The notes: generated from the sequence alone by a model not told the origin. Shown: positions 3,065 through 62,712, numbered from the stretch's first letter. The stretch: DNA of 64,000 bases from Candidatus Woesearchaeota archaeon (GCA_016180235.1 JACPBQ010000002.1:2206-66205), one strand, 5' to 3'. Program-made: numbers and translations.

Positions 3065-4273
3065 ATGCACCCTTTCACTTTCAAATACCAGCCAAAGACC
3101 TCAAAGGAGATAATAGGCCAGGAATCGGCAATAAAAAAACTAAGGGATTTTGTAATTAATTTCAAGAAGCAGAAAAAGAATGCAGCATTATTATACGGCC
3201 CTTCCGGAACCGGAAAAACAATAAGTGCCTATGCAATTGCTAAGGAACTGAACCTGGAAATTCTTGAAGTCAATGCCAGCGACGTTCGTAATGCCGACCA
3301 GATAAACTCTTTATTGGGCTCAGCAATAGGCCAGATGAGCCTGTTCTCAAAAGGAAAGCTGATTTTAGTGGATGAGATTGACGGCCTGTCAGGCACAAAA
3401 GACAGAGGCGGCTTGCAGGCAATTGCAAAATTAATAGAAAAATCATCATTCCCGATAGTGTTGACAGCAACAAACCCATGGGACTACAAGTTCAATAATT
3501 TAAGGAGAAGGGCTGAGATGATAGAATTTGCCCCATTGGACTACAAGGACATTTCCATTATCCTGAAAAGTATCTGCATCAATGAAAAGATAAAATTTGA
3601 AGAGGAAGTCCTTAAGGGCCTGGCCAGGAGGGCTGGAAATGATGCACGGGCAGCTATAAACGACCTGCAGACACTGGCAATGGAAGCAAAAGAACTGACA
3701 AAAGAAAGCCTTGAGGAATTGGGGGAAAGGAACAAATTGGAAAGCATGCCAAATGCCCTCGCCAAGATATTCAAGAGCACAGACCCGAAAGTTGCAATAG
3801 TTGCATTTGACGCTGTCGAGGAAAACCTTGATCAGCAATTGCTGTGGATTGATGAAAACCTGCCTAAGGAATACACAAATCCTGAAGATTTGGCAAAAGC
3901 ATATGACAAGTTAAGCAAGGCTGATATGTTTAGCAGAAGGATAAGAAGATGGCAGCACTGGCGTTTTCTTGTATACATAAACGCATTAATCACAGCAGGA
4001 ATTGCCGTTTCCAAAAAGGAAAAATATAAACACTATGTGCAGTATAAGCCAACAGGAAAGCTGCTAAAATTATGGTGGGCAAAGCAAAAATCAATGAAGA
4101 AAAAGGCCATTGCCGAAAAAATCGCTGAAAAAACGCACACATCAAAGAAAGAAGCCTTGAAAAGCACATTGCCATACCTGCAGGCTGCATTTAAAAAAAA
4201 CAGGGATTTCAGGGAGCAATTAACATTAGAATTGGATTTGAGCAGGGAAGAGGCTGAATGGCTGAGAAAATAA
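3065..4273 (+). CDS. rfcL: replication factor C large subunit (AAA+ clamp loader)
   Basis: Walker A LLYGPSGTGKT, then EVNASDVRN, LILVDEIDGL..DRGG and PIVLTATNPWD, the pattern of archaeal RFC-L. No SRC motif of the small subunit. Confidence 0.8.
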   Translation: MHPFTFKYQPKTSKEIIGQESAIKKLRDFVINFKKQKKNAALLYGPSGTGKTISAYAIAKELNLEILEVNASDVRNADQINSLLGSAIGQMSLFSKGKLILVDEIDGLSGTKDRGGLQAIAKLIEKSSFPIVLTATNPWDYKFNNLRRRAEMIEFAPLDYKDISIILKSICINEKIKFEEEVLKGLARRAGNDARAAINDLQTLAMEAKELTKESLEELGERNKLESMPNALAKIFKSTDPKVAIVAFDAVEENLDQQLLWIDENLPKEYTNPEDLAKAYDKLSKADMFSRRIRRWQHWRFLVYINALITAGIAVSKKEKYKHYVQYKPTGKLLKLWWAKQKSMKKKAIAEKIAEKTHTSKKEALKSTLPYLQAAFKKNRDFREQLTLELDLSREEAEWLRK

Positions 4274-6668: not shown

Positions 6669-8840
6669 CTATGCCCCTAAAGAGCTTGTCAGTATCTGCC
6701 CTGCAATTATATTAAATAATAGCATTACAATAAGGCTTATTATGCAGTAAAGCACTGTGCTTCTTATCATGTTATTTCCAAGCGAATATTTTTCATTCAG
6801 CTTGTCAGAGCCGTTCTCAATGCCGTTGACAAGTATTGTCAGGATATAAGTTATCTGCACAACATACAACCCTACAATTATCTGGAAATAATATGTCGGT
6901 ATTCCTTCTCCAAAAATCGCCATCAGGCCTGCTCCCTGGGCTGCAGAAGATCCGGCTGTAACATCCTGCAGCTGTGAGCCGAGCTTTCCAAGGATTGTGG
7001 TTACCATCGAAGTTATCCCTATGACAATTCCGGCTATTGCCGGTGTCAAAAATTTTATCTGGGAATTCATTGAAGAGATTATGTCTGCCAATAAATCCTG
7101 CAGCCTTTCATTCACGCTGTGTATTTCCTTTATGTACCTTGAGACGTTTGTCAGGGCCTGGGCTGCGATTACTGGCCCTTTTTTTACCGATTGGACAAGG
7201 ACCTTCATCGAGCTTTCTATGAGGTTTGACGGAAAACTTATCAAAGCCCCGTGCGCAGGGTCAAATATTGCCTGCTTTATCCCCATCCCGAGTTTTTTTA
7301 TGTTAGCGCTCACAAGGCTGAAAAAATTTCCCGAGACCGTGCCTTCCATCATGTTTGCGACCTTGTCGAATGCTATCTCTGCAGGAAGCCCGTCTCCCAG
7401 CCTGTTTCCGAGCTGGAACAATGCGGATGCAAATTCCATCTCCAGTTTTTTCGCCCTCTCCCTTATCTTTATGATGTTCTTTGACCTTAGCCTGTAGAAT
7501 ATGCCTATTCCCAGTCCTAAAGATAATGTCACCAGCAGGCTTAATATAGCCGCGCCAAGGCCGTAAGGCCCCTCTGTCTCTCCTGTTGTAGCGCTTTCCC
7601 TGTATTCAAGCAGGCAGAATTTCTTGAGGCATGGGCTTAATGCGTCTTCAGCGCCAAAGCCGATGTCTGTAAAATTGATGCTGTGCAGCAGTACAGGGCT
7701 TAATCCTATTATGAGCAGCAAAGCGCCTATAAATATGCTGAACACAAGGGGATTTATCAGGAATTCTATTTTTCCAAGTTTTATTATGACGTTCCTGTAT
7801 TTTTTGAGCTCTGGGTTTTCCTCAGAAATATCCGTCTGGCCGTATCCTGTCGGCCTCCTGGATAATACCGCTTTCCCGAGGTAATATACGGCAACAGGCA
7901 AAGCAACATTGTACAGTGCAGCTATATGGTACCATGCCACTCCTTCCATAAAGCTGACAACCAAGGGCAGTATGACCAGGCCAAGAATCGGCAAAATGAT
8001 GCCAAGCATGTGCAGCATCGTTATTGGGCTTTGGAGATTATGGGCATAATGCAGCATCTTCTCGTAAGTCTCGTCCAGTATGACGTCCAATGACTTGTCC
8101 AATGCATTCAGCCTTCTTTCCTCGCTTCCCTCGTACAATGAAGATTCAATAAGGTGGAAAGATTCTATGAACTCGAAATTCCATCTCTTCCATGTTTCCA
8201 GGTATATGTCAAGGCTTTCCTTTATGCTGTCGTATTTTTCTGTCTCGACGTCCCAGAGCACTTTCTTGAGGTCAAGGCTCAGCGGAGGCGCAAGATGGTC
8301 TGCCGCAAACTCAATTGCATTTTCCAGGTTGCTCGTATGCCTCATGTATGTTACCACATAAAATACGCAAAGCACCATCTGGTTGCTTGCCTTTAGCCGC
8401 CAGTTGTTTGCAATATAGTCCGGAAGCTTTGCAAAAGGCTTTATCAGGGAGATTCCTATTATGAAAAAGAAAAGAATGAAAAACACAGACTGCAGCAAAA
8501 GGAAGGAAAGCAGCGATCCAAGTAATATTATGAAGATCGGGGCCAAGATTGAAAAGGAGACCGCTCCTGAAGGGGTTATATCAAGATGGGATATGCTTAT
8601 GTTATCCAGCATATCCTCCTCTTTTTTCTTATCCGGCTTTATCTTCAGTATCTTCTCGCTCAGGCCGCATAGCTTCTCGTATATCGTAAAGTGCTTTGGC
8701 ATGTATTCCTGCCTGAATTCCCGGTATTCCCTGGAGGTGATTTTAGGGGAATAAGTCTTTGCGCCCAGCTCTTTCTCTATCTGCTGCCTGTAGAACTCTG
8801 CCAAGTTCTTCATCCTTTCCTTGTCGCTTTGCGTCGGCAT
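6669..8840 (-). CDS. polytopic membrane platform protein of a type IV filament system (FlaJ/TadC/PilC-like, T2SS-F-type domain)
   Basis: 723 aa with many TM helices. The cytoplasmic segment FASALFQLGNRLGDGLPAEIAFDKVANMM..IKKLGMGIKQAIFD..FPSNLIESSMKVLVQSVKKGPVIAAQALTNVSRYI fits the GspF/T2SS-F domain pattern. Same strand and directly downstream of the FlaI-type ATPase. Confidence 0.6.
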   Translation of the reverse strand: MPTQSDKERMKNLAEFYRQQIEKELGAKTYSPKITSREYREFRQEYMPKHFTIYEKLCGLSEKILKIKPDKKKEEDMLDNISISHLDITPSGAVSFSILAPIFIILLGSLLSFLLLQSVFFILFFFIIGISLIKPFAKLPDYIANNWRLKASNQMVLCVFYVVTYMRHTSNLENAIEFAADHLAPPLSLDLKKVLWDVETEKYDSIKESLDIYLETWKRWNFEFIESFHLIESSLYEGSEERRLNALDKSLDVILDETYEKMLHYAHNLQSPITMLHMLGIILPILGLVILPLVVSFMEGVAWYHIAALYNVALPVAVYYLGKAVLSRRPTGYGQTDISEENPELKKYRNVIIKLGKIEFLINPLVFSIFIGALLLIIGLSPVLLHSINFTDIGFGAEDALSPCLKKFCLLEYRESATTGETEGPYGLGAAILSLLVTLSLGLGIGIFYRLRSKNIIKIRERAKKLEMEFASALFQLGNRLGDGLPAEIAFDKVANMMEGTVSGNFFSLVSANIKKLGMGIKQAIFDPAHGALISFPSNLIESSMKVLVQSVKKGPVIAAQALTNVSRYIKEIHSVNERLQDLLADIISSMNSQIKFLTPAIAGIVIGITSMVTTILGKLGSQLQDVTAGSSAAQGAGLMAIFGEGIPTYYFQIIVGLYVVQITYILTILVNGIENGSDKLNEKYSLGNNMIRSTVLYCIISLIVMLLFNIIAGQILTSSLGA

Positions 8841-8912
8841 CTGTAGAACTGTTCACCTCTTTTTTTAAGTCATATTTATATAATAATAAACCAATAATCA
8901 TTCCTTTATTAT

Positions 8913-9072
8913 CTAGGCGCCGCCAATACCGCGGCGCATCATTGCACTGGACATTTGCGCAATCGCCCCATTACGGGCGATTATTGATGTGTTGCAGTGA
9001 TTGCCGCGCAACAATGGCGCGGCTAGGAAAGTTACGTACCAATGATGCGAGGCCGTAATGCGCCGAGCCTAT
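8913..9072 (+). repeat. GC-rich multi-hairpin element (candidate structured RNA or repeat family member)
   Basis: Hairpins GCGCCGC-caatacc-GCGGCGC, AATCGCCC-catta-GGGCGATT and GCCGCGC-aacaatg-GCGCGGC. Long-range pairings CGCATCATT/AATGATGCG and CACTG/CAGTG. Strongly GC-rich in an AT-rich spacer between the ATPase and platform genes. Confidence 0.6.
9009..9072 (+). repeat. left arm of 64-nt perfect inverted repeat
   Basis: caacaatggcgcggctaggaaagttacgtaccaatgatgcgaggccgtaatgcgccgagcctat is the exact reverse complement of 15772-15835. Confidence 0.9.
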
Positions 9073-9121
9073 TTTTCTGGGAATTATTTTCCGATTAGTC
9101 AAAATTAAATTCATCTTGCTT

Positions 9122-11413
9122 TTATTTCATATTCATCTTCTTTACGCTCCTTTTCAGCCATTCGTTCCAGTCAAAAAATATGCGCTTACTGTCCAAAGAC
9201 CCCGTCTCTTCCTTTATCCTCTCTGATATCATGTGGAACTCGTCATTTGCCATTACAACAAAATCGGCCTCGAGCAAATTGAGCATATTGGATTTTTCGG
9301 CGTAATTCAGCAAGGTTTCTTTCATTTTTGCCCTTAGCAGTATATTGTCCCAGACAGCATCCCAGCTTCCTGCCCATTCCTTGACATTTCCTGCTATTCC
9401 TTTCAGTATCTCGCTCTCCCCGTTAATCAGGTCGTCTGTAGGCTCAAGCTGGTCAGTCCTGCTGTCATATTTCATCAGGTCAACAAACCCATTTTCCAGC
9501 AAAGGGTCATTTTCCCAGTGCTTCCTCACCTCGGTTATCTGCGTGATTCTTCTCCAGCGGTGCAGGCCGTCTGCACTCCTTATGGGATTGGCAACAACGA
9601 TAATGTCAGTTGCCTTGAAGCTTGTCCTCGGCACTCCTAAGTCGTTTACAACCCTGTCAAAGACTCCGTAAGGAGAATCTCCATGGATTGTTCCTGCTAC
9701 GACATTGGCAAGTGCTCCTATCCTCATCGCCTCGTATAATGCCAAAGCCTCCTTGCTCCTTATCTCTCCGACGATTAAAGCAGAATCTCCCATCCTTAGA
9801 GTTGTCCTTATGCCTTCATCAGCAGGGACTTCCGCACTTCCCTTTGTCAACGCTGCAGCAACTTTCAGGGGCTGTATGTTATAGCCAAGCTTTCTTAACG
9901 AAGAGGTCGGCAGTTCCAGGGTGTCTTCAATTGTAATGACCCTGTATCTTCTCATCAATTCAACAAGCAAAGACCCCAATAACGATGTTTTTCCCGCGCT
10001 CCTGGTGCCTGCAACAAGCATAGTCCTGCTGCCGTCAATAATAAAGCTCAATAATCCAGCAGCCAATGGGCTTATCATCCGGTTGTGCATGAACAATGGC
10101 AATGTCCATGGCCTGTCCCTGTGCCTTCTGAAAGCGAAAGAAATGCCGAAAGGATTCAAAGGCTCCCCGACTGCAGCAACTCTTGTGTTTGCGCCCTTTA
10201 TGCTAAGCTCGGTGTCCAGGATTGGATTTGCCTCATCAAGCGGCCTTCCCGAAACAAGCCTTAGTTTTGTGGCCCACGAGTCTGCTTCCGCGCTTGTAGG
10301 GATTATGTTCGTCTTGCAGTCTCCGTAAGTCTGGTGCACGATGAAAGCAGGGACATCTCCGATCTGGTTGTTTATTGTGACATCCTGGACTTTCTCGTCC
10401 TGCAGCAAAACCTCTATCAGCCCAAAGCCTACTGTGTATCTGACAAGGATGTTCGTAAGCTGGTCAATTTCCGATGATGTAAGCTTCATGTCCCTGTATT
10501 CTGTAAGCTCCTCGATCAGGTCCTGGCCCACATTGAAGAAAACCTGCCTCATCCTTTCCGGATCCACAAACTCGCTTCTTTCCGGCTTGTGCTCTGCCAT
10601 TATCTTCCTAGCAGTGTCAAGTATCTCATATTTCTCCTCGGTAAGCTTGAATTCAGGGGGCATGATGTGGTAAAGGTACTGCACCGTGTCGGGAAGCTCG
10701 AATATTGTAACTTCAGTATCCCCGCCAATTGTGTAAGTCTCGAGCTCTTTTGCATCATGCGGGAAAGTGGACATCAGTTTCGTGAACATGAAATCCGGCC
10801 TTACTACCGGAATGAAAAATCTCCTGTAGATTTCCCTGTCTCCTATTTTGTGGCCTGCAAGATGGGGCTTTGCAAGCGCTATGATCCCTGTTTTCTCAAA
10901 CAATGCAAGGATAAACTCAAGAAGTTCAAGGTATTTCTGGCCGCACTTTGCAAACGTGCCGTCTGCAGACTTGTCGATATTGATCCTCTCGTCCCTTGCG
11001 ATCCTCACCAGCTCCACATAAGCGCCAATTGGATCTGATCTCAACAGATTGGAGATTATGTTCTGTATAGTGGAATACCAGCTGTTGGCCCATTTTGCGC
11101 AGCTTGTGTCTGAAACCAGCTGCGTATAGCTTGAAATCTCCTTTCTCCTGATAAGCTGGGAGTACAGCCTTGCTATTTCCCTCAGCAATATTGTCTGCTC
11201 ATAGTCATACTCATAATTTCTTTTTTGAGTAAATACTATTTTTGTTGCATCCTTGACCTCAATGAGCATGTCGCATGCCTTGGACATCACAACCGGGTCG
11301 TCTTCCAGGGAAGGCGCATGTGTATAATCTTCCATGTTAACTGAAAGCAGTACATCTTCCCCCTCCCTTATCACCTCGTAAGAGAAAGGCTTCTTGTTGT
11401 CGAACAGTGCCAT
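9122..11413 (-). CDS. type II/IV secretion-family ATPase (FlaI/ArlI / VirB11 / PilB-like) with long N-terminal extension
   Basis: Walker A GTRSAGKTS, Asp box VITIEDTLELP, Walker B ALIVGEIRSKEA, His box AGTIHGDSP. 763 aa. Confidence 0.85.
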   Translation of the reverse strand: MALFDNKKPFSYEVIREGEDVLLSVNMEDYTHAPSLEDDPVVMSKACDMLIEVKDATKIVFTQKRNYEYDYEQTILLREIARLYSQLIRRKEISSYTQLVSDTSCAKWANSWYSTIQNIISNLLRSDPIGAYVELVRIARDERINIDKSADGTFAKCGQKYLELLEFILALFEKTGIIALAKPHLAGHKIGDREIYRRFFIPVVRPDFMFTKLMSTFPHDAKELETYTIGGDTEVTIFELPDTVQYLYHIMPPEFKLTEEKYEILDTARKIMAEHKPERSEFVDPERMRQVFFNVGQDLIEELTEYRDMKLTSSEIDQLTNILVRYTVGFGLIEVLLQDEKVQDVTINNQIGDVPAFIVHQTYGDCKTNIIPTSAEADSWATKLRLVSGRPLDEANPILDTELSIKGANTRVAAVGEPLNPFGISFAFRRHRDRPWTLPLFMHNRMISPLAAGLLSFIIDGSRTMLVAGTRSAGKTSLLGSLLVELMRRYRVITIEDTLELPTSSLRKLGYNIQPLKVAAALTKGSAEVPADEGIRTTLRMGDSALIVGEIRSKEALALYEAMRIGALANVVAGTIHGDSPYGVFDRVVNDLGVPRTSFKATDIIVVANPIRSADGLHRWRRITQITEVRKHWENDPLLENGFVDLMKYDSRTDQLEPTDDLINGESEILKGIAGNVKEWAGSWDAVWDNILLRAKMKETLLNYAEKSNMLNLLEADFVVMANDEFHMISERIKEETGSLDSKRIFFDWNEWLKRSVKKMNMK

Positions 11414-11491
11414 TTTTGAATTTGTTGTTTTGTTTATTCGATTTTATTATCGGGATTTGATTTTTAAGTTGTTTTGATGCTTATGCAGGAT

Positions 11492-11644
11492 TTATTTGCC
11501 TTTTTTTGTTTCACTTTGCCTTAAAAGCTCCAGGGCTATCTCAATCAAATGGGACTTGTTCCTGTATTTCTTCCTGTCTTCCAGCTCCTTGTCCACCCAC
11601 TTGATTAGCTCTGCGTCAATTGTGGCGCTGATTGGCTTTTTCAT
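11492..11644 (-). CDS. ribbon-helix-helix (CopG/Arc/MetJ-type) DNA-binding protein, 50 aa
   Basis: Below the ORF-track size cutoff. Manual translation gives MKKPISATIDAELIKWVDKELEDRKKYRNKSHLIEIALELLRQSETKKGK, a beta-strand plus two helices typical of RHH. Sits directly upstream of the ATPase on the same strand. Confidence 0.6.
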   Translation of the reverse strand: MKKPISATIDAELIKWVDKELEDRKKYRNKSHLIEIALELLRQSETKKGK

Positions 11645-11773
11645 ATGACCCATATTATAAAATATATTTTTTATTATTTTTAATTATTTTATATATTTTA
11701 TATTATAAACATATCCTGATATTTAAATGTTATGGAAAGCAAGGCTTAAATAGTTCTGGCATACAGATATCCC

Positions 11774-12364
11774 ATGGATCCCATATTGCAGGCCATAATC
11801 CAGCTGGTAATCCTGTTTTTTGTCATATTTGACCCTTTTGTAAGCCTGGCTGTGTTCGTTATCGCGACAAAGAATATGGGCAATAAGGAGCGCAACTTGG
11901 TTGCTGCTCTCGCTGTCATAGTGGCTGCAATAATATCCCTGGTTGTGTTGGCCTTGGGCAACAGCTTTCTCATGCTCCTAAGCACAAGCCTTGAGGATTT
12001 TAGGGTTGCAGGAGGGATTATTCTTGGGCTCCTGGGCATCAAGATGGTATGGGGACAATCGCTTGTTAATGACGCCACTATTAAGGGCAGCTCCGGGCGT
12101 GCTATTGCAGCAATAATCGCGACTCCATTGCTAACGGGCCCTGCAGCAATAACTGCCATAATAATCAGCGTTAATGATCATGGCCATGCTATAACCGGCG
12201 CTGCTGTTGGATTTGTCCTGGGCATAAGCGCCCTTATGTTCTACCAGGCAACCAACATACAAAAAGCATTGGGAAATACTACCTTGCAGGTTATATCTAC
12301 AATTCTGGGATTAATAACGATAGCATGGGGTGTAAAGTTCATAAGGCTGGGATTGGGCATTTAG
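11774..12364 (+). CDS. MarC family (UPF0056) integral membrane protein
   Basis: Aligns by eye with E. coli MarC: FDPFVSLAVFVIATKNMGNKERN versus [23 protein letters not shown], and FRVAGGIILGLLGIKMV versus LRIAGGLIVAFIGFRML. About 6 TM helices in 196 aa. Confidence 0.8.
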   Translation: MDPILQAIIQLVILFFVIFDPFVSLAVFVIATKNMGNKERNLVAALAVIVAAIISLVVLALGNSFLMLLSTSLEDFRVAGGIILGLLGIKMVWGQSLVNDATIKGSSGRAIAAIIATPLLTGPAAITAIIISVNDHGHAITGAAVGFVLGISALMFYQATNIQKALGNTTLQVISTILGLITIAWGVKFIRLGLGI

Positions 12365-12589
12365 CCCCAGTCAAAAAAACAAAACATATATATAGCGGCG
12401 AAACTAAAATATTAATCAATATTCCGCCGCTATCATGAAAATCAAAGATTTTCAGGACACAAGCGCGAAGCGCTGTGCTGAACTTCGTTCATGCACAAAA
12501 AATCTATGATTTTTGTGTGTGTTCGAAAACACAAACTATTTGTGAATAAATTTTTTGTGTTTTCCGCTATATAAGTTAAAAAGAGGATT

Positions 12590-13033
12590 ATGAAAATGGA
12601 AGAACTTGGAATTCCGCCGGCACCAAAGCAGCATGCAGGCCTTTTCCGGGGCCAAAAGCCTGTGCAGGCTGACATCAGCCCTTTCTCAGAGGACATAGGA
12701 AATCTAAGCAGGAGGTTAAGGGTTCTTGAGGAAAGCTTCACCAACCTAAGAAGGGTTCTTCAGGTCACTGAGCAGAACATGCTGGATAAGAACCGCATTT
12801 TTACTACAGAGATAAGGACTATAGTTTCAGACATAAGCGACATGAAAAAGGAAATCAATGACATAAAGGAAAAAATAATGGAGCTCGTAAAGGAGCTGCA
12901 GACAGCAGCAAAGAGGGACGAGGTAAAAGTTCTTGAGAAATACATAAACCTGTGGAATCCCGTAAAATTTGTCACCCAGAACGAGGTCGAGCAGATAGTG
13001 AAGGAAATGCTCGACAGGGAAAAGGAAAAATAA
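12590..13033 (+). CDS. coiled-coil protein, unknown function
   Basis: 147 aa with heptad-rich sequence (LRVLEESFTNLRRVLQVTEQNM..ISDMKKEINDIKEKIMELVKELQ). AGAGGA-like RBS upstream. Confidence 0.5.
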   Translation: MKMEELGIPPAPKQHAGLFRGQKPVQADISPFSEDIGNLSRRLRVLEESFTNLRRVLQVTEQNMLDKNRIFTTEIRTIVSDISDMKKEINDIKEKIMELVKELQTAAKRDEVKVLEKYINLWNPVKFVTQNEVEQIVKEMLDREKEK

Positions 13034-13080
13034 GGGTTTGATTATTGATAATTAATAGGCGAGTCAGGAGTTTGAGTTTT

Positions 13081-13150
13081 AATAAATAGCGAAGCCGAGC
13101 GTATGCTAGAGAGCGAGGCTTCGCAGTAAATTTGCGGAGCAGATTTAAAA
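13081..13150 (+). repeat. GC-rich hairpin repeat, copy a (partner at 15843-15912)
   Basis: ataaatagCGAAGCC..GGCTTCGcagtaaatttgcggagcagatttaaaaa aligns with ataaataggCGAGGC..GCCTCGcactatagtttcggatcagattaaaaa. The stem carries a compensatory A-T to G-C change. Confidence 0.65.
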
Positions 13151-13231
13151 AATAAAATAAAGATTACTGCATGCTTAAATAGAAATGTTTATATACATTT
13201 TTTCAACTGAATTGTAAAAAAGAGGTATATT

Positions 13232-13876
13232 ATGGCTTTATTCAGCTTCGGCAAGAAAAAGAGCGCGCAACCAGTCCAATCAGCGCCTGGAAGCCCCATA
13301 GAGCAGGCAATGGTGATGAAGCAGAGGGGCATGGACAACAACTCCATAGTCCAGGAGCTTGAAAGGCAGGGCTATAATTCTTCCCAGATTTTTGATGTGA
13401 TGAACCAGATGAACATAAGCGGGGCAAACACGAGTATTGAGCAGCCTCCGGAATATGGCATGCCGCAGCAGGATTTTTCCTATCAGCAGCCGTATCCCCA
13501 GCAGCAATATGAGCAGCCAAGGGAAGAAAAAGAGTCTGTAAGCAGGGAGCAGATAGAAGAGATTGCAGAGTCGATAATAGACGAGAAATGGAAAGAGTTT
13601 GAGGAAGATGTCAGGAAAATAATTGAATGGAAAGACAAGACAGAGTTGAGGATAGGCCAGCTCGACCAGCAGATAAAAGATATTGCGGCTACTTTAAACA
13701 GCCTCCATAAAAACATAATAAACAAGGTTTCCGACTATGACCGGAATTTGACGGATGTCGGCACAGAGATAAAAGCCATGGAAAAGGTCTTCCAGAAAGT
13801 TTTGCCAAGCCTGACGGAGAATGTAAATAAGCTGGAAAGATTGTCTAAAGGCGCTAAGCCGTCAGTAAGAAAATAG
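13232..13876 (+). CDS. hypothetical protein: small helical N-domain, Q/P-rich linker, C-terminal coiled coil
   Basis: 214 aa. N-terminus SPIEQAMVMKQRGMDNNSIVQELERQGYNSSQIFDVMNQ, linker PQQDFSYQQPYPQQQYEQP, C-terminal heptads (LRIGQLDQQIKDIAATLNSLHKNIINKV). AGAGGT RBS upstream. Confidence 0.55.
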   Translation: MALFSFGKKKSAQPVQSAPGSPIEQAMVMKQRGMDNNSIVQELERQGYNSSQIFDVMNQMNISGANTSIEQPPEYGMPQQDFSYQQPYPQQQYEQPREEKESVSREQIEEIAESIIDEKWKEFEEDVRKIIEWKDKTELRIGQLDQQIKDIAATLNSLHKNIINKVSDYDRNLTDVGTEIKAMEKVFQKVLPSLTENVNKLERLSKGAKPSVRK

Positions 13877-13941
13877 GCTTAATCAGTTAATAATTATTGC
13901 TAACAAATAGTGTTGGTTAGAAAATTGAATTCTATTTTATG

Positions 13942-14445
13942 CTAAGTCTGCTTCGCAGCCAGCAATCCGATTGTAAACACTGCTATAAGGAATATAAGTA
14001 TCATACCAAGAAAATTGGGGTGGAATATGATTGTGGATGTCTTGGCAAAATCTTCCCCTCTTTCCGGAACATTGACATTTTCCCTGACGACAGCCAAGGC
14101 CCCTACAATTAATGCAACAACCAGGATGACAAGCACAATATATTTCATTGCGGGCATTTCAAGCGCTGTGGCTGAGCCTCCGAACATCTTGGCTGCTATC
14201 GCCACTATCGCAACTAATACCAGCACAACCGCAAAAACCGGGGCTATCTGCTTCACGACCTCTGTGGCTATCTCCGATATTATGACAAAGAATGATGCCA
14301 GCAGCCCTATCAGGATTATTATTATCTGGTTCTGGCCAAGCACTTTTGTATAGAGAAGCACGGCATAAACGAAAAGCCACACAAAAAGGAATACAAAAAC
14401 AACAGAAAAGCTCTGAAGGGCCGTAACATCAAGAAAAGTTGCCAT
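13942..14445 (-). CDS. polytopic membrane protein, paralog 1 of 3
   Basis: 167 aa with 4-5 TM helices. The N-terminal TM followed by ..YTKVLGQNQ resembles the ..LEKSKILG / ..LERTKVFG motif of the two upstream genes. Confidence 0.55.
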   Translation of the reverse strand: MATFLDVTALQSFSVVFVFLFVWLFVYAVLLYTKVLGQNQIIIILIGLLASFFVIISEIATEVVKQIAPVFAVVLVLVAIVAIAAKMFGGSATALEMPAMKYIVLVILVVALIVGALAVVRENVNVPERGEDFAKTSTIIFHPNFLGMILIFLIAVFTIGLLAAKQT

Positions 14446-14451
14446 TTTCGC

Positions 14452-15054
14452 TTATTTTCCGCCAAACATTCTGCCAAAATCCATTCCAAGCCTCTTGAAG
14501 CCTGCTAATTTCTCCCTTTCGCCTTCCCCGCCGGTAACGAATGATATAATGACGCCAAAGACAACAAGCATTATGAAGATTGCCAGCGCATCAGAGCCGA
14601 ATATTCTTTCCAGCCAGTCATCGAATCCTGCTGCGTACCATCCTGCTGAACTGCCAAATATTATTATTATTGCAACAATGGAAAAGAATCCTATCCATCC
14701 GGGCATGGACATCCCCAAAGTGACCTTGTCATGGGCAAAAACCCCTATCAGGATCATTAGCGAAATGATGCCGACTATAACAAGGCCGACCTGAGGCAGT
14801 GCGGCATTTATGATTAAAACGGGGTCAAATCCTGCAGGCAGGTCTCCTGTTATGTGCGGTATGACAATTATGAGGGCAAAAATAAGCGCTATCGCGCTGT
14901 TCATGTTCCTCTTTTCCTCTCCAAGAATCTTTGATTTTTCCAGAACCGCAAAAACTATTGTAAATATCAGGAGAAAAGGCAGCAAAACGTCCATAAGGCC
15001 CCATCTCTCCAGTGACCTTCCAAATTCCTCAAGCACAAAATTCTCTGAAGCCAA
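14452..15054 (-). CDS. polytopic membrane protein, paralog 2 of 3
   Basis: 200 aa. The N-terminal motif DVLLPFLLIFTIVFAVLEKSKILGEE is shared with paralog 3. Confidence 0.6.
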   Translation of the reverse strand: MASENFVLEEFGRSLERWGLMDVLLPFLLIFTIVFAVLEKSKILGEEKRNMNSAIALIFALIIVIPHITGDLPAGFDPVLIINAALPQVGLVIVGIISLMILIGVFAHDKVTLGMSMPGWIGFFSIVAIIIIFGSSAGWYAAGFDDWLERIFGSDALAIFIMLVVFGVIISFVTGGEGEREKLAGFKRLGMDFGRMFGGK

Positions 15055-15111
15055 TTAACGCACCTTTTTTGATTTAATCTAAATTATTGAAGTTATACTT
15101 TTTAAACTTTG

Positions 15112-15663
15112 CTATGATTTCTTATCATGGTGGCGATGGCTGTCCTGGGTTACATAGACAACAAACATCACTATTATAATCAACAAAAAAATCGATCCTG
15201 TAACTTCTCCCCTGCTGCTGCCGCTTAAAAAGCCGAATGTATCATCCAGAAGGTTAAGGGCGTCCAGGAAAATGAAGATGAGCACAATAAATACTATTAC
15301 CATGAATGCTGTCTTCCAGCCTCCTTCCAGAAAAACCCCTTCCGGCCTTTCCTGGAAAAAAGAGCCTACAAGCAAGAGGAATAATACCACCAAAAACAAT
15401 AAAACAACAAAGTTTGATGAAACAGCTGTTATTATCTCAACAAGCCTCGAGGATGCAATGACAAGGAATGCAATTACGAATGCTGCTACCGAGTTAAGGT
15501 TTTTCTTCGTGTATTTCTTCCCGTCTATCTCCTCAACCCCGAAGACCTTTGTCCTCTCCAATAATGCAAAAACGATTGTGAAGACAAGAAGGAACGGCAG
15601 GACTACGTCAAAGATGCCTATATTATCAAAAAAATTTATTATCTCCCTGAATTGAGTTGCCAT
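15112..15663 (-). CDS. polytopic membrane protein, paralog 3 of 3
   Basis: 183 aa. The N-terminal motif DVVLPFLLVFTIVFALLERTKVFGVEE is nearly identical to paralog 2. Confidence 0.6.
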   Translation of the reverse strand: MATQFREIINFFDNIGIFDVVLPFLLVFTIVFALLERTKVFGVEEIDGKKYTKKNLNSVAAFVIAFLVIASSRLVEIITAVSSNFVVLLFLVVLFLLLVGSFFQERPEGVFLEGGWKTAFMVIVFIVLIFIFLDALNLLDDTFGFLSGSSRGEVTGSIFLLIIIVMFVVYVTQDSHRHHDKKS

Positions 15664-15771
15664 CTTTTTTTAAATGATTTTATTCTTATGTCCATATATA
15701 AACTTTTCGAAAAGATGTATTGGAATTATACCTATAAAATATAAAAATAATACCCATAAATATAGGCTCGG

Positions 15772-15835
15772 CGCATTACGGCCTCGCATCATTGGTACGT
15801 AACTTTCCTAGCCGCGCCATTGTTGGGCGGTAATA
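15772..15835 (-). repeat. right arm of 64-nt perfect inverted repeat
   Basis: Exact reverse complement of 9009-9072. Weaker similarity continues outward (ggacattt..attaccgccc) with a deletion of about 47 nt relative to the left copy. Confidence 0.9.
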
Positions 15836-15842
15836 AATGTCC

Positions 15843-15912
15843 ATAAATAGGCGAGGCGAGTGATGTGGCAAGGCAACGAGCCTCGCACTATAGTTTCGGA
15901 TCAGATTAAAAA
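15843..15912 (+). repeat. GC-rich hairpin repeat, copy b (partner at 13081-13150)
   Basis: Stem GCGAGGC (15851-15857) / GCCTCGC (15880-15886). The flanks align with copy a. Confidence 0.65.
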
Positions 15913-15944
15913 TCATAATAAACAATGTGCTACTAATTAAAAAA

Positions 15945-48809: not shown

Positions 48810-48953
48810 GGGCCCGTGGTCTAATCCGGCATGACGTTTCCTTCGCAGGGAAAAGACTCCGGGATGCTCGAAATTAGTTTTTCGGCACGGAAATTCAAAT
48901 ATCCCAGAGGGAGACTGCAAATCCATTGGGTTTTGAGAGTCCCGGCGGGTCCA
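48810..48953 (+). tRNA. tRNA-Ala(CGC) with two insertions flanking the T-loop
   Basis: GGGCCCG/CGGGTCC acceptor with G3:U70 (alanine identity pair). D-arm GTC-TAATCCGGCAT-GAC. Anticodon arm TTTCC-TTCGCAG-GGAAA. T-stem CCGGG(48859-63)/CCCGG(48941-45). TTCAAAT at 48894-48900. Insertions of 30 and 40 nt, and 74+70=144 nt. Confidence 0.75.
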
Positions 48954-48967
48954 TTTCAATTTCAAAA

Positions 48968-52202: not shown

Positions 52203-52293
52203 GGATTTAATTCTGGGATTTTATATTCTTGAAGTTGATTTGGTATATTATGCGAAAACTATTTAATCGGCCGTAATTTTATACTCTTTTTAT

Positions 52294-52513
52294 GCCGACG
52301 TCGCATAACCTGGCATTGCGGTGGCCTTGAGAGCCACTTCCCGTAAGGGTATCTCGGTCAGCTTTTTTGCTTGCGCAAAAAACCTGGGAAAAACAGGGAA
52401 TTCCTCGTTTTTGCCCGGAATTCAAATTGCAGAGTAAGCAAATAGCTGGAGAAATTCAAATATCCCAGAGGGCAGCTAAAATCCCTCGGGATTTGGGAGT
52501 CCGGGCGTCGGCG
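52294..52513 (+). tRNA. tRNA-Ser(UGA), class II, with two insertions around the T-loop
   Basis: Acceptor GCCGACG/CGTCGGC, discriminator G. D-arm GCA-TAACCTGGCAT-TGC. Anticodon arm GTGGC-CTTGAGA-GCCAC. Long variable arm (CCC-gtaa-GGG). T-stem 3' CCGGG (52501-05). TTCAAAT at 52455-61. Insertions of about 97 and 39 nt. Confidence 0.7.
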
Positions 52514-52581
52514 TCATTACTTTTAGTAGTTATAAATCTTAAATAATTTTAATTGCCATATCTTTAGAATTAAAGGTATAA

Positions 52582-62468: not shown

Positions 62469-62664
62469 TGGGCCCGAAGGGACTTTCACCAACTGCGAAC
62501 ATAGAGGGGCTGAGCGAGCGTTGCGAGCAGCGAAATGGTGAGCGAGTTTCTTGCGAACCTCGCATCTCACTGCCGCTCGAACGTGCCAGCTGAGTTCTCA
62601 GCTGTGTTGAACCCTTGACCTCCGCCGTGTCGAGGCGACGTCATAGCCACTAGACCACGGGCCC
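62469..62664 (-). tRNA. tRNA-Val(GAC) with a 123-nt GC-rich insertion in the T-loop
   Basis: Minus strand: GGGCCCG..CGGGCCC-A acceptor. D-arm GTC-TAGTGGCTAT-GAC. Anticodon arm TCGCC-TCGACAC-GGCGG (anticodon complement of 62629-62631, C rather than U at position 33). T-stem AAGGG/CCCTT separated by 130 nt that begin with TTCAA. Confidence 0.65.
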
Positions 62665-62712
62665 TTAGAAAAAGAAAAATAAGGCGGTTTATATAAAAAT
62701 ATTGTTATCTGG

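Follow-up and report, generated by a model that had tools for sequence, protein, structure and literature searches.

A palindromic intergenic element in two inverted copies at the borders of an ATPase gene block in a Woesearchaeote

Identification of the element

A metagenome-assembled stretch of 64,000 nt from Candidatus Woesearchaeota archaeon (GCA_016180235.1, JACPBQ010000002.1:2206-66205), referred to below as the window, contains a perfect inverted repeat of 64 nt around a 6.7-kb block that carries the gene of a FlaI/VirB11-type ATPase. It was found that the repeat belongs to a GC-rich, imperfectly palindromic, non-coding element of about 190-220 nt, which is present in two copies of opposite orientation and whose common core forms the two arms. 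With a probability of roughly 0.65, the element is a palindromic intergenic repeat resembling either miniature inverted-repeat transposable elements, known as MITEs, or enterobacterial repetitive intergenic consensus (ERIC) sequences, and is restricted to one lineage of Woesearchaeota.

The sequence-only reading from which this analysis started had placed the right arm at 15772-15835. The perfect repeat is real; its right arm lies at 15762-15825, a shift of 10 nt, and after this correction the bracketed interior is 9073-15761. No match was obtained in 100 dinucleotide-preserving shuffles. The arms and the elements to which they belong are the following.

9009-9072 (no strand assigned): left perfect 64-nt arm, exact reverse complement of 15762-15825
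15762-15825 (no strand assigned): right perfect 64-nt arm, corrected position, exact reverse complement of 9009-9072
8884-9102, plus strand: left full-length element from A-end to B-end (nhmmer envelope, E = 2e-61), without an open reading frame (ORF)
15730-15921, minus strand: right full-length element from A-end to B-end (nhmmer, E = 7e-50)

Without gaps, the arms are 93% alike across 96 nt (8995-9090 versus 15744-15839). Weaker similarity had been described outside the 64 nt, in the outward direction; it exists there, and it runs inward into the block as well. When gaps are allowed the similarity reaches further, and TGGACATTT is common to both arms past a 43-nt indel, while the outer end modules of the two arms are diverged. 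Both arms are intergenic and lie in GC-rich islands of about 200 nt within AT-rich spacers: their G+C content is 55%, as compared with 40% for the window and 16-35% for typical spacers of this region. The left arm is located in a 281-nt spacer between the stop codon of the ATPase gene and the start of a gene for a 723-aa protein, both on the minus strand. The right arm is found between the divergent starts of a gene for a 183-aa membrane protein (minus strand) and a translin-family gene (plus strand).

Searching the window with an nhmmer profile of the element gave exactly two copies. For comparison, homologues of either the ATPase or the 183-aa membrane protein served to fetch contigs of relatives, to which a DNA-pattern scan added one more; they are designated by L numbers. 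The closest of them come from groundwater and aquifer metagenomes, and the homologues of the ATPase identify the host as a Woesearchaeote (DPANN). The elements measure 190-270 nt, contain no ORF and are situated in spacers.

Anatomy of the element

The element consists of two end modules and an interior with hairpins, for which the left copy serves as reference.

8893-8944, plus strand: left A-type end module, AATAATCATTCC..TAGGC, a GCGCCGC/GCGGCGC hairpin and ATCATTG, with an AT-rich outer part
8961-8982, plus strand: hairpin 2 of the left element, AATCGCCCC-ATTAC-GGGCGATT, inside the 43-nt segment missing from the right copy
9003-9023, plus strand: hairpin 1 of the left element, GCCGCGC-AACAATG-GCGCGGC; the edge of the 64-nt tract, 9009, is the top of its 5' strand
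9040-9096, plus strand: left B-type end module, CAATGATGCG..GTAAT..GAGCCTA..GGGAATTATTTTCCGATT, in which GTAAT is a small hairpin loop, with an AT-rich outer part

Between these ends (8893-9096), the interior is delimited by the motifs CATCATTG and CAATGATG. The A- and B-end modules, each of about 50 nt, are imperfect inverted copies of one another and approximately 72% alike by manual count. The B-type end is the best-conserved module across the copies of the window, L008, L010, L011, L013 and L018. The A-end hairpin carries compensatory changes in L008, where the stem reads GCGCCAAC/GTTGGCGC.

The segment 8915-9064 of the left copy was predicted to fold into one long hairpin of about -64 kcal/mol, with z scores of -3.1 and -3.4 on the two strands. 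The right element follows the same plan without the 43-nt hairpin-2 segment; its A-side end is more diverged and the z score of its fold is about -1.8. Folding of the 96-nt arms alone was unremarkable (z from -0.4 to -1.0).

A scan of the left spacer for promoters and terminators of the bacterial type gave nothing, archaeal signals being outside that scan. Architectures of the tRNA-half, C/D-box and H/ACA type were sought by eye and rejected; an AUGAUGC resembling a C box occurs, but D boxes and spacing do not fit.

Occurrence in related genomes

At the left site, the spacer between the ATPase gene and the 723-aa gene, relatives are described below by the amino-acid identity of their ATPase to that of the window. 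The window, L001 (92%) and L008 (94%) have the element. L007 and L009 (94-95%) lack it and contain unrelated sequence with other small hairpins instead; it is also missing from L002 (87%), where the spacer is 79 nt long, and from L003-L005 (84%), with a 363-nt spacer of nearly pure A+T. On this distribution, the left copy appears to be confined to a narrow subclade.

The copies at the left site differ in arrangement. The L001 copy is reversed as a whole with respect to the flanking genes and matches the opposite strand at 88% over 164 nt, whereas the 26 nt adjoining the start codon of the 723-aa gene align collinearly with the window. The inverted segment takes its outermost end sequences along, AATCGG included, and its B-end holds a nested hairpin insert of about 45 nt. 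The interior of the L008 copy is collinear with the window, yet its A-type and B-type ends are on opposite sides. This copy also contains two extra inserted hairpins, one of which recurs elsewhere, including at 12433-12462 of the window.

At the right site, between the translin-family gene and the first membrane gene, full copies in the same place and orientation were found in L010, L013 and L014. L011 has half a copy and L015 the outer hairpin alone, and the contig L018 begins within the B-end of the element. No element is present in L003, L004 and L017. Between L017 and L018 the first membrane protein is identical and the presence of the element differs; the GenBank contig L001 ends at the exact base where these two diverge. 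All right-site copies have a single orientation. The right copy is apparently the older one; it is common to relatives that are just about 80% identical in DNA, such as L010 (about 80% over 4.5 kb).

Gain, loss, truncation and re-orientation of the element at both sites indicate that it is a fast-turnover insertion rather than a conserved part of the gene cluster. The same cluster is retained in relatives where one copy or both are missing, which makes the repeat dispensable for it. These observations mark the spacers of the conserved ATPase cluster as hotspots of structural turnover in DPANN genomes.

Other small insertions were observed in the same spacers. The left spacer of L009 has undergone one such event: a 50-nt insert with a hairpin is flanked by a perfect 21-nt direct duplication (3692-3712 and 3763-3783), in which the ribosome-binding region of the 723-aa gene is included. 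Several tandem copies of short palindromic repeats from a second family, unrelated to the element and built of CCACC/GGTGG-type hairpins between GTCAAAAAC...GTTTTTGAC borders, occur in these spacers of relatives (L007 946-1263, L003 6032-6434, and L017 and L018 just upstream of the first membrane gene). In place of the palindromic element, the right spacer of L017 (1268-2204, 937 nt) has two CACTGGACATT motifs, an ORF of 76 aa and a sequence resembling a tRNA; the first membrane protein of this contig is identical to those of L001 and L018.

Nature of the element

The MITE-like or ERIC-like reading is preferred because the element is non-coding, modular and insertion-polymorphic, has inverted ends and varies in orientation. 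In all likelihood it is a structural element of selfish or neutral character, for which we infer both mobility and the lack of a dedicated function. As in MITEs, a sequence of about 200 nt, within the limit of approximately 500 bp, is non-coding, intergenic and bordered by terminal inverted repeats; it occurs in either orientation, receives nested insertions and is polymorphic among close relatives. The polymorphism was seen at both sites, between strains whose ATPases are 84-95% identical or whose first membrane proteins do not differ. The element differs from MITEs in that its known copies are confined to two spacers of one gene cluster and that neither a target-site duplication nor a partner transposase was found.

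A similar comparison can be made with the ERIC sequences (intergenic repeat units, IRU), the Correia elements (Neisseria miniature insertion sequences, NEMIS) and the repetitive extragenic palindromic sequences (REP) with their bacterial interspersed mosaic elements (BIME). These are imperfect palindromes of about 100-200 nt in or between transcription units, with an orientation that varies at orthologous sites, length variants due to internal insertions, a mosaic of hairpin modules and possible effects on mRNA. The present element likewise is an imperfect palindrome with a long hairpin and with orientation and insertion variants (L001 and L008). In contrast, the known families are bacterial and usually present in tens to hundreds of copies per genome. 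No sequence relationship to them exists, and neither a REP-associated tyrosine transposase (RAYT) nor a transposase of the IS200 type was seen.

Effects on expression, if any, would be incidental, for example by way of a long RNA hairpin in the transcript running from the ATPase gene to the 723-aa gene. If the left copy is transcribed, such a hairpin could, whatever its orientation, influence processing or read-through. Effects of this kind have been described for ERIC and Correia elements in bacteria. The same spacers of the window and of its relatives contain further families of small hairpin repeats, which fits the MITE-like or ERIC-like reading, and a published census of MITEs reports a Woesearchaeal genome as one of the most MITE-dense in archaea (PMC11602168). 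If correctly assigned, the element documents a lineage-specific palindromic repeat family in Woesearchaeota and a new member of the small palindromic or inverted-repeat intergenic elements.

Several observations weigh against this assignment. By inspection of the two window copies and of L001, no convincing target-site duplication was recognized, the ends of the element being delimited only approximately. Neither an autonomous element nor a transposase with matching ends was found in the window. The observed copy number is low (two in 64 kb), and blastn together with the nhmmer profile gave no further copies in the window or the relatives' contigs beyond the two sites. Exact core-pattern scans, which detect near-identical cores only and miss diverged copies, returned one GTDB representative locus (the L001 contig), one JGI metagenome contig (L010) and zero viral sequences. 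Every copy found is at the same two spacers of one gene cluster, unlike a freely dispersing MITE, and a role specific to the cluster may follow from this confinement. Two hairpins have compensatory changes, which suggests that their structure is under selection; the two-sided changes concern three pairs, a weak signal given that the covariation score was reached by 17 of 500 shuffles with n = 7. Lastly, the gene conversion described in the next section is deduced from one mosaic sequence in a metagenome assembly.

An unlikely alternative is that the element encodes a small structured RNA or serves as a DNA site bound by a protein, for instance by the small ribbon-helix-helix (RHH)-like protein encoded in the block, and that its two copies co-regulate the cluster from its borders. 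This would agree with the GC-rich islands amid AT-rich spacers, with hairpins kept through two-sided changes, with the location of all known copies at these two spacers and with the T-rich runs that follow the B-end in both window copies. The T-run is not conserved, however, as L008 is A-rich at this place. Rfam gave nothing relevant at gathering thresholds over the window, nor any match at E values up to 10 over both spacers, and a tRNA/tmRNA scan at the arms was negative. With an orientation that varies relative to the flanking genes, the weak covariation and the unremarkable folds of the 96-nt arms, the profile is not that of a structured non-coding RNA. The right copy is located upstream of the two divergent TATA-like promoters, which are conserved, and outside either mRNA. 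Since the element is also dispensable in very close relatives, an essential role is disfavoured.

Quite unlikely is a further possibility, namely that within the spacer between the ATPase gene and the 723-aa gene the element acts as a small cis-regulatory unit of its own, invertible or dependent on orientation, which flips between its ends of about 50 nt. Such flipping would alter transcript processing, stability or read-through, as reported for the ERIC sequences of Yersinia or for switches of the fimS type. In its favour, three configurations occur at this one spacer (L001 being the full inverse of the window, and L008 combining the window interior with ends of the L001 type), a long hairpin forms on either strand (z about -3), and the element sits between two co-directional genes of a surface-apparatus cluster. 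On the other hand, the configurations differ between metagenome-assembled genomes (MAGs) from different sites and not within one population. The inversion in L001 includes the outermost ends, which fits reinsertion or an independent insertion at least as well as a flip in situ. Moreover, the element is missing from strains with 94-95% identical ATPase, the right-site copies all have one orientation, the window contains no invertase, and the interior shows no obvious archaeal TATA box. The positional association and the compensatory changes are the reasons why a cis-regulatory or RNA role retains a small probability.

It is very unlikely that the element is an active recombination substrate undergoing both flips in situ between its own ends and occasional flips of the whole block with its partner 6.7 kb away. 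If this were true, a pilus-like surface apparatus of an archaeon would be subject to phase variation that is recombinase-independent or driven by an unknown recombinase, which would be notable.

Probable gene conversion between the two copies

The right copy of the window is a mosaic. Its translin-side part resembles right-site orthologues (78% over 78% of its length in L013 and 77% over 59% in L015), and so does its membrane-gene-side part (76-83% over 90-98% of the length); both of these flanking parts match the left copy over just 13-17% of their length. The 64-nt tract between them is 100% identical to the left copy and 83-85% identical to the right-site orthologues. In the middle of the tract, GGCTAGGAAAGTTACGTACC, 18 of 20 positions match the left-site copy of L001 and 12 of 20 the right-site copy of L010, as counted by eye. 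One edge of the tract falls within hairpin 1, at its loop:

15811-15831, minus strand: hairpin 1 of the right copy, a chimera with a 5' ACCGCCC of right-site type and a 3' GCGCGGC of left-site type

The stem of this hairpin is GCCGCGC/GCGCGGC in the left copy and ACCGCCC/GGGCGGT in L010, two pairs being changed on both sides. By combining ACCGCCC with GCGCGGC, the right copy of the window is left with two broken pairs; at columns 143/165 and 148/160 it shows the sole non-pairs among seven copies.

Because right-site-type flanks enclose a left-type tract whose edge breaks the stem of hairpin 1, the 64-nt identity is best read as a recent gene-conversion tract, for which the left copy was the donor and the older right copy the recipient. 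This is the simplest explanation, and we infer from it both the conversion and its direction. A short tract of the left copy would have been transferred to the right by non-crossover homologous recombination between the inverted repeats, and the two arms would accordingly have interacted in the past. Homogenisation by gene conversion is known for rRNA operons, copies of insertion sequences and tuf genes. The likeness to gene conversion between dispersed inverted repeats lies in a short perfect tract within diverged paralogous copies and in a mosaic phylogenetic signal. The difference is that here the tract covers just 64-96 nt of a non-coding repeat and is deduced from comparison with orthologues. 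It would represent a small-scale case of apparent gene conversion between inverted copies.

Alternatively, the identical tract or the orientation of the block could be an assembly artefact, caused by chimeric joining of strain variants or by repeat collapse. The source is a metagenome-assembled contig, the relatives show strain-level heterogeneity exactly at these spacers, and the contig L001 breaks there. Nevertheless, the orthologous right-site and left-site copies are about 83-86% alike in the tract and have no common long k-mers that would permit a template jump, and the 64-nt repeat is shorter than a typical read; an assembly chimera is unlikely for these reasons. The assembled gene order is also the same as in every relative. 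Overall, an artefact is considered highly improbable.

Orientation of the 6.7-kb block

The sequence-only reading had proposed that recombination between the arms would invert the block. In the form of a programmed or frequent phase-variation switch, the ATPase and accessory genes would be flipped relative to the 723-aa gene. The proposal has some ground. A perfect inverted identity of 64 nt is long enough for homologous recombination and is a plausible substrate for inversion, the proposed gene conversion would be a past interaction of the arms, and in bacteria, inversion switches typically act on loci for pili and other surface structures.

The relatives point the other way. Gene order and orientations were identical to those of the window in every relative examined, with the conserved order 723-aa gene, ATPase gene, small RHH-like gene, two coiled-coil genes, three membrane genes and translin-family gene. 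The junction between the ATPase gene and the 723-aa gene had the window orientation in 7 of 7 contigs, and the junction between the translin-family gene and the membrane genes in 8 of 8. No junction expected from inversion was found among these 15 junction-bearing contigs. In L013 a single contig runs from the translin-family gene through to the ATPase gene, with the element at the right site. The sequence-only reading had itself named a fixed order in related genomes as an outcome that would speak against inversion, and this was borne out by all 15 contigs. A second such outcome, that the 64-mer might be a common dispersed repeat with no positional association, did not apply, since the element was found only at these two sites.

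Nor is the supposition supported that the arms define an invertible unit: each is independently present, absent or truncated in close relatives with the same cluster, and the block has one orientation throughout. The long identical tract together with both copies is known from the window only, so that the tract looks recent and not like a conserved recombination site. Added to this, no recombinase domain was found in the 64-kb window.

The comparison with established invertible segments (Hin/H, Gin/G, fimS and the invertons of Bacteroides) leads to the same view. The likeness is limited to inverted repeats around a segment next to surface-structure genes. Those systems recombine at short conserved sites, encode a dedicated invertase close by and occur in both orientations within a population. 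The window, in contrast, has no invertase, its arms can be dispensed with and were recently homogenised, and a single orientation is seen across relatives. Among the marks of an inverton, therefore, the window and the relatives' contigs display the inverted repeats at the boundaries and neither a recombinase, nor both orientations, nor conserved sites.

Taken together, a programmed or recurrent switch of the block is not indicated, and as far as the compared sequences tell, its orientation is fixed in the lineage; switching of this kind is judged highly improbable. Rare inversion by homologous recombination might occur between such arms. A composite transposon is ruled out, as the flanking repeats are not insertion sequences with transposase genes; they are non-coding elements of about 200 nt without transposase, and the block was rightly described as not being a classical transposon. 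If the element is an ordinary small repeat, a more general caveat follows: where a functional gene block of a MAG is enclosed by a long perfect inverted repeat, this is not necessarily the sign of a switch or of a mobile cassette. A recently homogenised repeat can be told from a conserved recombination site by comparing relatives.

Gene content of the block

The genes next to the elements are listed below.

6669-8840, minus strand: gene of the 723-aa protein, conserved neighbour that adjoins the ATPase gene in every relative examined
9122-11413, minus strand: T2SSE/FlaI-TadA-type ATPase, 763 aa (PF00437, E = 5e-15; NCBIfam TadA and FlaI matches below the cut-off)
13942-15663, minus strand: three paralogous membrane-protein genes (167, 200 and 183 aa), identified by alignment, in an order conserved in relatives
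15112-15663, minus strand: first membrane gene, 183 aa
15976-16548, plus strand: translin-family gene (PF01997, E = 7e-27), which adjoins the right element

Most of the earlier gene labels stood. The PF00437 (T2SSE) match agrees with the FlaI/VirB11-type assignment of the ATPase, the MarC gene (11774-12364, plus strand) was confirmed by Pfam, and the two proteins labelled as coiled-coil are both coiled-coil-like. The three membrane proteins are weak paralogues, 21-24% identical, with a common N-terminal motif. For the putative RHH gene, a 53-aa protein is indeed encoded, but its RHH match is below threshold (E = 0.03). The label FlaJ-like platform for the gene at 6669-8840 was not upheld: no T2SSF/FlaJ match, and no family match of any kind, was obtained for the 723-aa protein in Pfam, NCBIfam or PDB sequences. 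That label rests on its conserved adjacency to the ATPase gene, solely, and the protein is a putative platform component.

Pfam scans of about 60 ORFs across the window gave housekeeping and transport functions only. No recombinase, integrase or transposase domain was detected by these scans in the block, where their absence had already been stated, or in the rest of the window.

Some close homologues of the ATPase (P0073, P0074, P0079 and P0087) have a length of about 1270 aa and carry intein and LAGLIDADG domains (PF14890 and PF14528). An intein thus invades this ATPase in related Woesearchaeota; that of the window is intein-free. In addition, the MarC gene and a hairpin-packed spacer of about 200 nt (12365-12589) form an insertion of about 860 nt (approximately 11707-12567) relative to L001, L007, L009 and L013, in which the coiled-coil gene and the RHH-like gene are just about 180-320 nt apart.

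Other features of the window

A tRNA-Val(GAC) gene at 62470-62665 (minus strand) contains a GC-rich insert of about 122 nt at a non-canonical position in or near the T-loop, and ARAGORN detects the gene only after removal of this insert in silico. A stretch of it (62522-62572) shows 76% similarity to the nested hairpin that the L001 copy of the element contains. Two further tRNA-like genes with long inserts were recognized by eye at about 48810-48960 and 52293-52525 (both on the plus strand). Their anticodon loops suggest Ala-CGC and Ser-UGA, respectively. Both were missed by ARAGORN, which made no call for targeted spliced constructs of the Ser-UGA-like gene either. The Ala-CGC-like gene overlaps the predicted TTG start of an ORF at 48926, and the two genes have a module of about 57 nt in common (GAAATTCAAATATCCCAGAGGG...GAGTCC).

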